A DNA stretch of 64,000 nucleotides, from the sequence record MF158041. One strand, given 5' to 3'. Both the position numbers and the translations under genes were made by a program. Positions 46,653-47,525 of this stretch are shown piece after piece (the first letter of the stretch is position 1; every line of letters starts with the position of its first letter). The DNA comes from Shigella phage Sf15. The notes beneath the pieces were generated by a model. That model was given only the letters and a program-made list of their open reading frames with translations. It was not told the origin of the DNA and made no database searches.

Positions 46653-46725
46653 TAACGTGTGAAGGAATCGAACCTTCGCCTTTTCTTTACCAGAGAAATA
46701 GATTGTTTATTGTTTGCTGTAAACG
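46653..46725 (-). tRNA. tRNA-like fragment (T-arm and anticodon arm, possible Thr GGU); likely degenerate
   Basis: T-arm GAAGG-AATCGAA-CCTTC and anticodon hairpin present but no matching 5' acceptor strand. Confidence 0.25.
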
Positions 46726-46882
46726 GTCTTCTGTAAAATTGTTGGAACCAGACCAAGTTTTAAATTTTTCAAATTAAATTGGCTTGAAATATTAAAATTG
46801 CTTGCTGTATTTGGTCTTCTGCTCCTTTAAAGAATACTCGTAAGAACTCTTTAAGGGAGGGGCTAAAAAGCCCTCTCAAATT

Positions 46883-46960
46883 TGGCGGTTACGAAGGGAT
46901 TCGAACCCTCATCATCCTCCGTGACAGGGAGGTATTTTGACCAGTTAAACTACATAACCT
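46883..46960 (-). tRNA. tRNA-Asp (GUC)
   Basis: anticodon stem CCTCC/GGAGG, loop codon GAC. Confidence 0.7.
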
Positions 46961-46965
46961 TTATT

Positions 46966-47053
46966 TGGTGCGCCGTGAAGGAGTCGAACCTCCCGAGTCA
47001 TAATGACAAGTGATTTACAGTCACCACCGCTTCCATCTACGGGATAACGACGC
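46966..47053 (-). tRNA. tRNA-Tyr (GUA)
   Basis: 88 nt with long variable arm, loop codon TAC. Confidence 0.7.
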
Positions 47054-47122
47054 ATTTTATTCTATTCAGGCTAAGGACTTGCACCTTACAAATCGGTGAG
47101 CAATCGCTTCTCTCCCAAATCT

Positions 47123-47199
47123 TGGCGGTTAGTCAGGGATTCGAACCCTGTACCATTCGGTTAACAGCCGACCGCACATGCCTTATGTGCTTCCTAACC
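47123..47199 (-). tRNA. tRNA-Asn (GUU)
   Basis: D stem GCAC/GTGC, loop codon AAC. Confidence 0.7.
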
Positions 47200-47283
47200 A
47201 TGTTAGTATTACCAGACCGTATCTTTTCATTTTTTGCCTATAAAAAATTTTAAGTGTTTGCTGTAAACGGCCTTCTGTAAATT

Positions 47284-47360
47284 TGGAGGCGGGTGTAGGA
47301 GTCGAACCTACCGATAACATGCTAATGAGACATGTGAGACACCCTTTCTCTATACCCGCA
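47284..47360 (-). tRNA. tRNA-Met (CAU), possible initiator-like (1:72 mismatch)
   Basis: loop codon ATG; first acceptor pair unpaired. Confidence 0.55.
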
Positions 47361-47447
47361 ATTCTTAATGACCAGACCAAATCTTTTTTGGATTTCTATG
47401 CGCGAAATTGAAAAGTTTGTTTGCTGTAATTGGTCTTCTGTCAAAAC

Positions 47448-47525
47448 TGGCATTCCCGAAGGGACTTGAACCCTCAAACCACACCTTGAAAGGGTGTTGA
47501 CTTTACCTAATTTGTCTACGGGAAT
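47448..47525 (-). tRNA. tRNA-Glu (UUC)
   Basis: perfect acceptor ATTCCCG/CGGGAAT, anticodon stem ACACC/GGTGT, loop codon GAA. Confidence 0.75.

Follow-up and report, generated by a model that had tools for sequence, protein, structure and literature searches.

Small structured RNAs between the tRNA genes of Shigella phage Sf15 are probable Y-RNA-like partners of a divergent phage Ro60-like protein

Ro60 proteins have as partners the Y RNAs, which are small, carry a bulged stem at their ends and are usually encoded beside the protein gene. The Y RNAs of bacteria and phages often include a transfer RNA (tRNA)-like domain, and phage Ro60 homologues with adjacent Y-like RNAs are a known precedent. 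Small RNAs are also encoded in phage tRNA clusters: rnaC and rnaD of phage T4 (species 1 and 2) are small stable RNAs of unknown function that are released with the tRNAs, and rnaC has a T-arm-like hairpin. Here we analyse a stretch of 64,000 nucleotides (nt) from Shigella phage Sf15 (sequence record MF158041), hereafter the window, in whose tRNA cluster a block of about 30 nt is repeated. We describe the repeats, the RNA structure to which they belong, the Ro60 fold of the protein encoded beside the cluster, and the genomic partnership of such RNAs and protein genes across phages. We take every block to mark the 5' end of a gene, standing in its own right, for a small non-coding RNA. The RNA family is widespread, was not found described, and is probably a variant of the Ro60/Y-RNA kind.

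The pattern TTGCTGTAWWYGGYCTTCTG occurs at 46714-46733, 46802-46821, 47258-47277 and 47421-47440 and nowhere else in the 64 kilobases (kb). Four occurrences compare with 0.10 expected by chance, at least four were reached by none of 100 shuffles, and a repeat finder grouped the identical four copies as a 36-nt family. A preliminary description, made from the letters of the window, had already noticed this repeat and suspected a diverged copy near 46801-46825, which is a true member (element B, Table 1). Since all tRNA genes lie on the minus strand, that description had read the reverse complement of the transcribed strand, and it overlooked the 3' partner, (WY)GGTCTGG, that belongs to every block. 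It placed the blocks just 3' of tRNA genes, which is so for two copies, 3-4 nt past the CCA of tRNA-Glu (47448) and tRNA-Met (47284), but not for the remaining two, which stand in tandem within the 424-nt spacer from tRNA-Asp to tRNA-Lys.

On the minus strand the block reads 5'-NNNN-AGA-AGRCCRW-WWUACAGCAA and forms the 5' arm of a terminal bulged stem, the 3' arm of which, WYGGUCU-G-N'N'N'N', follows 40-112 nt downstream of the block. The stem is composed of an inner helix of 7 base pairs (bp) and an outer helix of 4-5 bp with an AGA/G internal loop between them, and the single-stranded motif UUACAGCAA comes immediately after the 5' arm. There are four paralogous copies, 72-132 nt long and all on the minus strand, termed elements A to D, and the stem pairing is used in the minimum free energy (MFE) fold of all four. 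Element D, which occupies the spacer from tRNA-Glu to tRNA-Met, has the outer helix UGAC/GUCA, the AGA/G loop, the inner helix AGACCAA/UUGGUCU, UUACAGCAA and an internal hairpin. Element C occupies the spacer from tRNA-Met to tRNA-Asn and has UUAC/GUAA, AGA/G and AGGCCGU/ACGGUCU, including one G·U pair. The helices of element B are GGAGC/GUUCC and AGACCAA/UUGGUCU, and its motif is AAUACAGCAA; it stands in tandem with element A, 7 nt upstream. In element A, a terminal stem and motif like those of the other copies enclose a permuted tRNA-like domain. A first covariance model of the family (R1), run unfiltered over the 64 kb, returned exactly these four elements, and so did a second model (R2), built on 35 diverse matches, with nothing else significant.

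The sequences of the stems vary in a manner that preserves their pairing. Among the paralogues, the inner helix contains CCGU/ACGG or CCAA/UUGG, and the outer helix UUAC/GUAA, UGAC/GUCA or GAGC/GUUC. Orthologues of the four copies, at fixed positions and with the 7 + 4 bp intact, are all present in about 30 IMG/VR contigs of Ounavirinae, and compensated changes such as UUAC/GUAA to UUGC/GCAA are found among these orthologues. An alignment of 22 Ounavirinae sequences has 98.3% of its cells paired, as against 78.3% in column shuffles and 22-44% with slid partners, and shows double (compensatory) changes in 8 of the 11 stem pairs. The broad alignment of 35 diverse members likewise has an inner helix that is 98.3% paired, with six of the seven pairs compensated and one G-C pair invariant (34 of 34 members). 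The G·U pairs suit an RNA of the minus strand only, since a reading of the opposite strand turns them into C·A mismatches. Because the pairing is kept while the sequence of the block changes in distant phages, the conserved feature is an RNA helix on the tRNA strand and not a DNA promoter signal.

Table 1. Positions in the window of the four RNA elements, the parts of the tRNA-like domain of element A and neighbouring features
Feature	Position	Strand	Basis	Remarks
Element D	47369..47443	-	R1 76.4 bits, E 3.7e-14; R2 61.4 bits; RF01414 21.3 bits; MFE fold	
Element C	47209..47280	-	R1 81.0 bits, E 3.7e-15; R2 65.8 bits; RF01414 22.2 bits	
Element B	46744..46825	-	R1 75.4 bits; R2 57.0 bits	
Element A, long form	46605..46736	-	R1 52.8 bits, E 4.9e-9	Outside the R1 training set
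V hairpin	46682-46698	-	RNAalifold	Element A
T arm GAAGG-UUCGAUU-CCUUC, canonical	46661-46677	-	RNAalifold	Element A
AS, closed acceptor-like hairpin	46645-46660	-	RNAalifold	Element A
D-like arm GUGUAAUGGNAGCAC	46627-46643	-	RNAalifold	Element A
Ro60-like protein gene, 471 amino acids	47777..49192	-	Pfam DUF2828 + DUF7788; PHROG 850 'RNA-binding protein'	
tRNA-Glu	47448..47525	-	ARAGORN	Encoded CCA 4 nt ahead of element D
tRNA-Met	47284..47360	-	ARAGORN	5' end 8 nt past element D; CCA 3 nt ahead of element C
tRNA-Asn	47123..47199	-	ARAGORN	5' end 9 nt past element C
Sigma-70-like promoter TTGACA-18-TATAGT (putative)	47639..47668 (47668->47639)	-	Consensus scan, 11/12, TG extended	Upstream of tRNA-Pro
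Second sigma-70-like promoter TTGACA-17-TAATAT (putative)	47730..47758 (47758->47730)	-	Consensus scan	Function inferred
Long imperfect hairpin, ~25 bp	45228..45295	-	MFE fold, arm comparison	Motif 2 CAGUUCUCUACAAAG forms the 3' arm; hairpin end 7 nt ahead of tRNA-Leu(tag)
Hairpin, 7 + 6 bp	46312..46377	-	Fold	3' strand is the motif 2 copy 46316-46330; in the tRNA-Lys to tRNA-Met spacer

The V, T, AS and D parts of the tRNA-like domain are all predicted by RNAalifold from seven orthologues of element A, and 14 of the 31 pairs are compensated, notably in AS. The Rfam tRNA model gives 28.8 bits at 46653-46727 of this element, just under its threshold of 29. Long members of other lineages have the same T-AS-D order, one of them (at locus L067; the loci compared carry L numbers) with a textbook D arm, and elements B to D are without the domain. 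The elements were rejected as tRNA genes, as ARAGORN found no tRNA at any of the four, the Rfam tRNA match is sub-threshold and covers part of element A only, and the arms are permuted. At L147:8512-8619 and L109:5726-5837, an AAG...CUG terminal stem surrounds an unpermuted tRNA body with D, anticodon and T arms.

Immediately upstream of the tRNA and RNA cluster, on the shared strand, lies the gene for a 471-amino-acid protein (Table 1), listed as a 'middle' RNA-binding protein in the re-annotation of phage Sf14. Structure prediction identifies this protein as a divergent Ro60 with the TROVE and von Willebrand factor A (vWA) fold. Sequence searches of the PDB, with the single sequence and with a profile, gave no match, and fold comparison alone worked. 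The AlphaFold2 model, made with 32 homologues, has a predicted local distance difference test (pLDDT) score of 89.3 and a predicted template modelling (pTM) score of 0.89 and matches Ro60 over its full length; the top nine Foldseek matches of the model are all Ro60/TROVE proteins, with E values of 1e-7 to 4e-6. A single search yielded 2,437 DUF2828/DUF7788 homologues that passed the filter, and DUF2828 is also present in plants and mimivirus-like sequences. Literature searches for the RNA motif and for DUF2828 returned no description of the RNA, nor of DUF2828 as a relative of Ro60, and the spacers are not mentioned in the Sf14 and Felix O1 genome papers.

The RNA and the DUF2828 gene are found together in distant phages. 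In Ounavirinae-like loci and in phage contigs of 143-153 kb, the DUF2828 gene lies directly ahead of the tRNA and RNA cluster. Yersinia phage P778 (52% protein identity) has the DUF2828 gene and then a tRNA cluster with three elements, in which the stem is altered to GGACUGU/ACAGUCC and the loop to ACA/A, the pairing is kept, and the motif is UUACAGCAA or AUUCAGCAA. In the 143- and 153-kb contigs (46-49% identity), tandem elements extend from the stop codon of the gene and stand before the first tRNA. The partnership was further examined in an environmental set of 75 loci whose DUF2828 genes are 39-45% identical. R2 made 84 matches there at E<=1, and 84 of 84 lie on the strand of the gene. A match at E<=0.01 is present in 43 of the 75 loci, 25 of which are outside the training of the model. 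Matches no more than 500 nt from the gene, a range that covers 8.3% of the searched sequence, occur in 36 of the 75. A control of 31 unrelated viral loci with a chance 20-nt block gave 0 R2 matches. Vibrio phage 1.081.O has no element directly beside the gene and a single 27.7-bit match after a tRNA, 4.6 kb upstream. The environmental members are 57-75 nt long, and multiple tandem copies are common. Several loci, L086, L102 and L120 among them, have an element and no tRNA gene in the searched stretch, and the single tRNA gene of L111 is about 6 kb from its element. Since the RNA stands beside DUF2828 genes even without tRNAs, and the control gave no match, these sequence comparisons point to the Ro60-like gene as the constant partner of the family and to the tRNA spacers as the place where the Ounavirinae happen to keep it. 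The suggestion that the blocks are processing or anchoring signals therefore survives in a loose sense: they belong to an RNA-level element, whose protein-binding end they probably form, and processing of the flanking tRNAs probably sets the RNAs free. The blocks do not, however, serve the tRNAs as signals, as the same RNA lies beside the Ro60-like gene in phages without nearby tRNA genes.

In the environmental phage loci L103, L112, L119, L122, L134 and L141, the DUF2828 gene has a gene for transfer-messenger RNA (tmRNA) no more than a few kb away, which hints at a wider cluster of translation and RNA-quality genes.

In the explanation that we consider likely, the four RNAs are Y-RNA-like partners of a divergent phage Ro60 and are released by tRNA processing. 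The RNAs and the tRNAs would share a transcript driven by sigma-70 promoters that precede tRNA-Pro; judging from its sequence, the TTGACA-18-TATAGT promoter probably initiates this transcript, on which elements D to A lie along with the tRNAs. RNase P cleavage and 3'-end trimming are established steps of tRNA maturation. Elements D and C would be released when RNase P cuts at the 5' end of the tRNA that follows and trimming acts on the 3' end of the tRNA that precedes; as tRNA-Met is flanked by these two elements, its own RNase P and 3' maturation would free both. The closed terminal helix may shield the ends of the RNA. By analogy with Ro60 and Y RNA, the ring of the Ro60-like protein may bind the conserved AAG...CUG helix and the adjoining UUACAGCAA, and the RNA may gate the protein or tether it to other factors, as Y RNAs do with bacterial Rsr. 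The tRNA-like module could offer a handle to tRNA-binding enzymes or exonucleases. During infection, structured RNAs such as tRNAs may in this way be subjected to quality control, turned over or repaired.

Several points weigh against this explanation. We infer the expression, excision, binding and function of the RNAs, the Ro60 kinship of the DUF2828 protein rests on a predicted fold, and to our knowledge RNA binding has never been shown for any DUF2828 protein. For elements B and A, which have no tRNA at either side, a different nuclease would have to bring about release. The elements lack the canonical Ro-binding motif (GNCGAAN0-1G or GGUCCGA), and neither YrlA nor Y_RNA of Rfam matches them even at E<=10. 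At E<=0.1, 26 of the 75 DUF2828 loci are without an element, and the model, being A-rich, could favour the weakest matches on the sense strand of A-rich phage genomes. The adjacency on the same strand would also fit a cis-regulatory element of the DUF2828 messenger RNA (mRNA).

In that last case, the element would be, for example, an autoregulatory protein site in an untranslated region of the DUF2828 mRNA, duplicated into the tRNA cluster in the Ounavirinae. Most environmental copies are indeed located 10-400 nt from the end or start of the gene on the same strand, and the single-copy environmental cases could be of this nature. In Sf15, however, the four copies lie 330-1170 nt downstream, past two promoters and among tRNAs; together with the frequency of tandem multiple copies and the presence of tRNA-like modules, which are typical of trans-acting Y RNAs, this makes cis-regulation quite improbable. 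It is also unlikely that the hairpins are passive processing or punctuation devices of the tRNA precursor, such as guides for RNase E, RNase III or RNase P or protectors of 3' ends, without function once they are cut out. Two copies exactly occupy spacers between tRNAs in this phage, and other spacers hold conserved hairpins too, which would fit such a role. Most neighbouring tRNAs of the cluster are nevertheless just 2-8 nt apart and need no such element, and the RNA is found beside DUF2828 genes in loci that have no tRNA genes in the searched stretch. Moreover, the 9-nt single-stranded motif and the tRNA-like domain are conserved though the Ro60-like proteins are only 40-50% identical, which exceeds what a spacer needs.

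That the blocks are decaying tRNA pseudogenes or functionless selfish tRNA-derived repeats might be suggested by the T arm of element A, by its 28.8 bits on the tRNA model and by the presence of a pseudo-tRNA elsewhere in the cluster. We regard it as very unlikely, because orthologues with intact stems stand at fixed positions in about 30 genomes and no neutral decay is seen, compensatory evolution is strong, and the family is tied to one protein family across distant phages. The proposal of the preliminary description that the blocks are internal promoters of the tRNA cluster fares worst and has hardly any probability. It is true that the minus strand has a perfect TTGACA in copy D and TTTACA in copies A and C, and that one copy, A, reaches a weak 9/12 match in the scan. 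No copy, however, has a consistent -35/-10 pair, as a usable -10 at 16-18 nt is missing from all of them and a -35 from copy B; the number of promoter-like sites in the region equals that of shuffles (13 against 13.6), the good sigma-70-like promoters stand elsewhere, ahead of tRNA-Pro, and in relatives the hexamer changes jointly with its pairing partner, from TTAC/GTAA to TTGC/GCAA.

Some other identities were considered and rejected. Intrinsic terminators are contradicted by the lack of a U run after the stems, the 3' arms being followed by GUAAUAC, GUCAUUA and similar sequences. None of the terminator-like sites of the minus strand coincides with the four elements, and the single plus-strand terminator match in element A (46659-46679) merely reflects the T arm of that element, read as its reverse complement. 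When the plus strand is read as MotA-box-like (TTTGCTGTA with TAAAAT), the -10 is present in just two of the four copies, transcription would be antisense, and the G·U pairs favour an RNA of the minus strand. By inspection, the loop and its flanking bases misfit the G·A/A·G pattern of a kink-turn.

The phage of the window is Felix O1-like and belongs to the genus Mooglevirus of the Ounavirinae. The Shigella phages Sf13 and Sf17 are 98-99% identical to positions 45200-47700, and Escherichia phage vB_EcoM_3HA14 is 100% identical to positions 46450-47620. ARAGORN found 26 tRNA genes at 42945-47611, on the minus strand without exception. The TTGACA-17-TAATAT promoter sits within a 12-bp hairpin, 3' of the stop codon of the Ro60-like gene. 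Two protein-coding genes lie within the tRNA cluster on the minus strand. The one at 43121-43918 encodes a DUF7217 protein, elsewhere annotated as a putative membrane or receptor-recognition protein, and the one at 44336-44548 is an open reading frame of 70 amino acids, called gp18 in the annotation of Sf13, which shares part of its sequence with tRNA-Arg(acg).

Other structured or repeated sequences accompany the tRNA genes. A tRNA-like sequence at 45574-45655 (minus strand) was missed by ARAGORN and Rfam. Its acceptor stem has 7 bp, it encodes CCA, and its CUCCAAA resembles an anticodon loop (Trp-like); 'pseudo-tRNAs' have been reported for relatives of Felix O1, and this sequence probably belongs to them. 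Directly past element A and 4 nt before tRNA-Lys lies a 144-nt element (46463-46606, minus strand) with a 21-bp closing stem that is 86% complementary; the 152-nt spacer stretch that contains it (46459-46610) has an MFE of -51 kcal/mol, and the element could be a substrate of RNase III or a further structured RNA. A repeat of about 25 nt occurs at 44033-44057, 45905-45929 and 46827-46851, one copy being just upstream of element B, and by inspection the minus strand of the 44033-44057 copy forms a 9-bp hairpin capped by a UACG tetraloop. The spacer at 44719-44813 (minus strand) contains CUGAAGACCGUAACAAAUC, which resembles the 5' block CAGAAGACCGUUUACAGCAAAC of the family; it went unscored by both covariance models and may be a decayed copy of the element.

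A second motif noted in the preliminary description, CTTTGTAGAGAACTG, does recur just 5' of tRNA genes. It is present exactly twice, at 45228-45242 and at 46316-46330 (2 nt from the second position first given), and its minus-strand copies end 7 nt before tRNA-Leu(tag) and 14 nt before tRNA-Met. The TATAAT-like sequence said to lie next to it exists at 46309-46304 (minus strand), but lacks a -35 partner. A third match with two mismatches, on the opposite strand at 45281-45295, is the hairpin partner of the 45228-45242 copy, which brings the total to three matches against 0.26 expected. The pairing of the hairpin at 45228..45295 is kept with changed sequence in the Felixounavirus loci L069-L072. 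The second hairpin lies in the 81-nt spacer from tRNA-Lys to tRNA-Met (46302-46382), which is absent from Sf14, where the annotation places the two tRNAs 4 nt apart; the spacer is therefore an insertion/deletion polymorphism. Neither R1 nor R2 matches the motif 2 hairpins, and one possibility is that they are leader structures for RNase III or RNase P.

The present analysis turns an anonymous repeat of well-studied typing and therapy phages, the relatives of Felix O1, into a testable ribonucleoprotein that would consist of a divergent Ro60 and four dedicated RNAs, among which element A would be the tRNA mimic. For the large 'unknown' protein family DUF2828/DUF7788 it points to a function, and it would extend Ro60/Y-RNA biology to many more phages, some of which have large tRNA arsenals. 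In such phages the system may have to do with the quality control of tRNAs, or with defence and counter-defence at the level of tRNA. The covariance model offers a direct route to annotating the RNA.

The only known Rfam families that matched were tRNA and, below threshold, RF01414 (Dictyostelium Class I RNA). At eight independent elements, RF01414 scores higher than any other Rfam family apart from tRNA (17.6-30.7 bits), with 17.6, 21.3 and 22.2 bits for elements of the window and 26.4-30.7 bits for five elements in L086, L102, L120, L121 and L134. Every one of these matches coincides exactly with an element found by R1 and R2, but all scores are below the gathering score of 41.5, and chance matches of 25-27 bits are common in large genomes. 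Class I RNAs are defined by a 6-bp terminal stem, in which the 5' G that pairs with a 3' C is invariant, an AAG start and a CUGU end, and by an 11-nt motif, CCUUACAGCAA, next to the 5' arm, in which U3, C6, C9, A10 and A11 are invariant. Going by sequence, with RNA ends that are predicted, the phage family has a short terminal stem, an invariant G-C pair and AAG/CUG flanks as well: the R2 consensus is A-A-G-(5-6 nt stem)-UUACAGCAA ... (stem)-C-U-G, and the copies of the window read AGAAG...UCUGG. All members have (CC)UUACAGCAA or WUNCAGCAA directly after the 5' arm, which keeps five of the five invariant positions, and the remainder is variable, often with a hairpin, as in Class I RNAs. On the other hand, the spacing in the phage family is 1 nt shorter, and the copies of the window measure 72-132 nt, in contrast to 42-65 nt. 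The Dictyostelium upstream sequence element (DUSE), a promoter about 60 nt upstream of Class I genes, is absent, a criterion inapplicable as such to phage genes in a bacterial-type operon. Class I RNAs have been reported as unique to Dictyostelia, and the host of the RNAs described here is a bacteriophage. The Class I likeness is accordingly taken as a resemblance and not as a demonstrated relationship.

Two of the environmental phage loci have, some 170 nt downstream of their Class I-like RNA, a near-threshold Rfam match to the cyanobacterial small RNA NsiR1 (threshold 39 bits), at L120:7924-7978 (37.7 bits) and L134:7928-7982 (38.6 bits).

The function of Class I RNAs has been unknown since 2004. 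Their known direct binder is a protein with an RNA recognition motif, and DDB_G0281243, itself of unknown function, is one of the other three proteins that were pulled down. It is conceivable, as a tentative idea that we hold to be doubtful, that the phage RNAs and the dictyostelid Class I RNAs represent one type of molecule and serve as cognate ligands of DUF2828-type Ro60 paralogues. An unrecognised second branch of the Ro60/Y-RNA system would then reach from phages to eukaryotes, and Class I RNAs would gain a predicted protein partner. The match in features makes the Dictyostelium puzzle testable by asking whether a DUF2828-like protein binds Class I RNAs. An Arabidopsis outgroup candidate with a covariance model score of 40 was dismissed as non-genuine (Kjellin et al., bioRxiv 10.1101/2020.04.05.026054, Additional file 7). 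It carries the full signature, UGUUUUC-AUUACAGCAA...GAAAAC-UG (10.1101/2020.04.05.026054), and would, on the same supposition, be another candidate member; as plants carry DUF2828 genes, this 40-bit locus merits a second look.

Like rnaC and rnaD of T4, the RNAs of Sf15 are small RNAs encoded in a phage tRNA cluster. Unlike the T4 RNAs, they bear the AAG/UUACAGCAA/CUG signature. The family model has no match in the T4 tRNA region, which led us to reject rnaC and rnaD as members, and no DUF2828 gene is annotated in the 6 kb of that region examined.

The comparison with YrlA and YrlB reveals differences in both partners. Unlike Rsr, the phage protein belongs to DUF2828/DUF7788 and not to the TROVE family of Pfam, and its kinship is detectable by fold only. 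The GNCGAAN0-1G of YrlA is replaced by A-A-G-R in the phage RNAs, whose 5' strand is ACAGAAGRCC here and (A)AAGG/AAGA in the wider family; it is purine-rich and contains GAA, and is not the published Ro-binding motif. The phage family also differs from YrlA and YrlB in its extra invariant single-stranded UUACAGCAA, and the RNAs of Sf15 in their location within a tRNA operon. The likenesses concern the organisation of the whole system. As in bacterial YrlA/YrlB with Rsr, and in the phage versions of mycobacteriophages and of Thermus phage phiLo (Yrl1/Yrl2 with phiRo60), small RNAs are encoded beside a gene for a protein of the Ro60 fold and on its strand, and as in the YrlA/YrlB systems there are several paralogues per genome. 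The ends of the RNAs are closed by a bulged stem with a purine-rich conserved 5' strand, as in YrlA and YrlB. One long form has the V, T, closed acceptor-like stem and D order of YrlA, and the shorter forms are without it, like YrlB.

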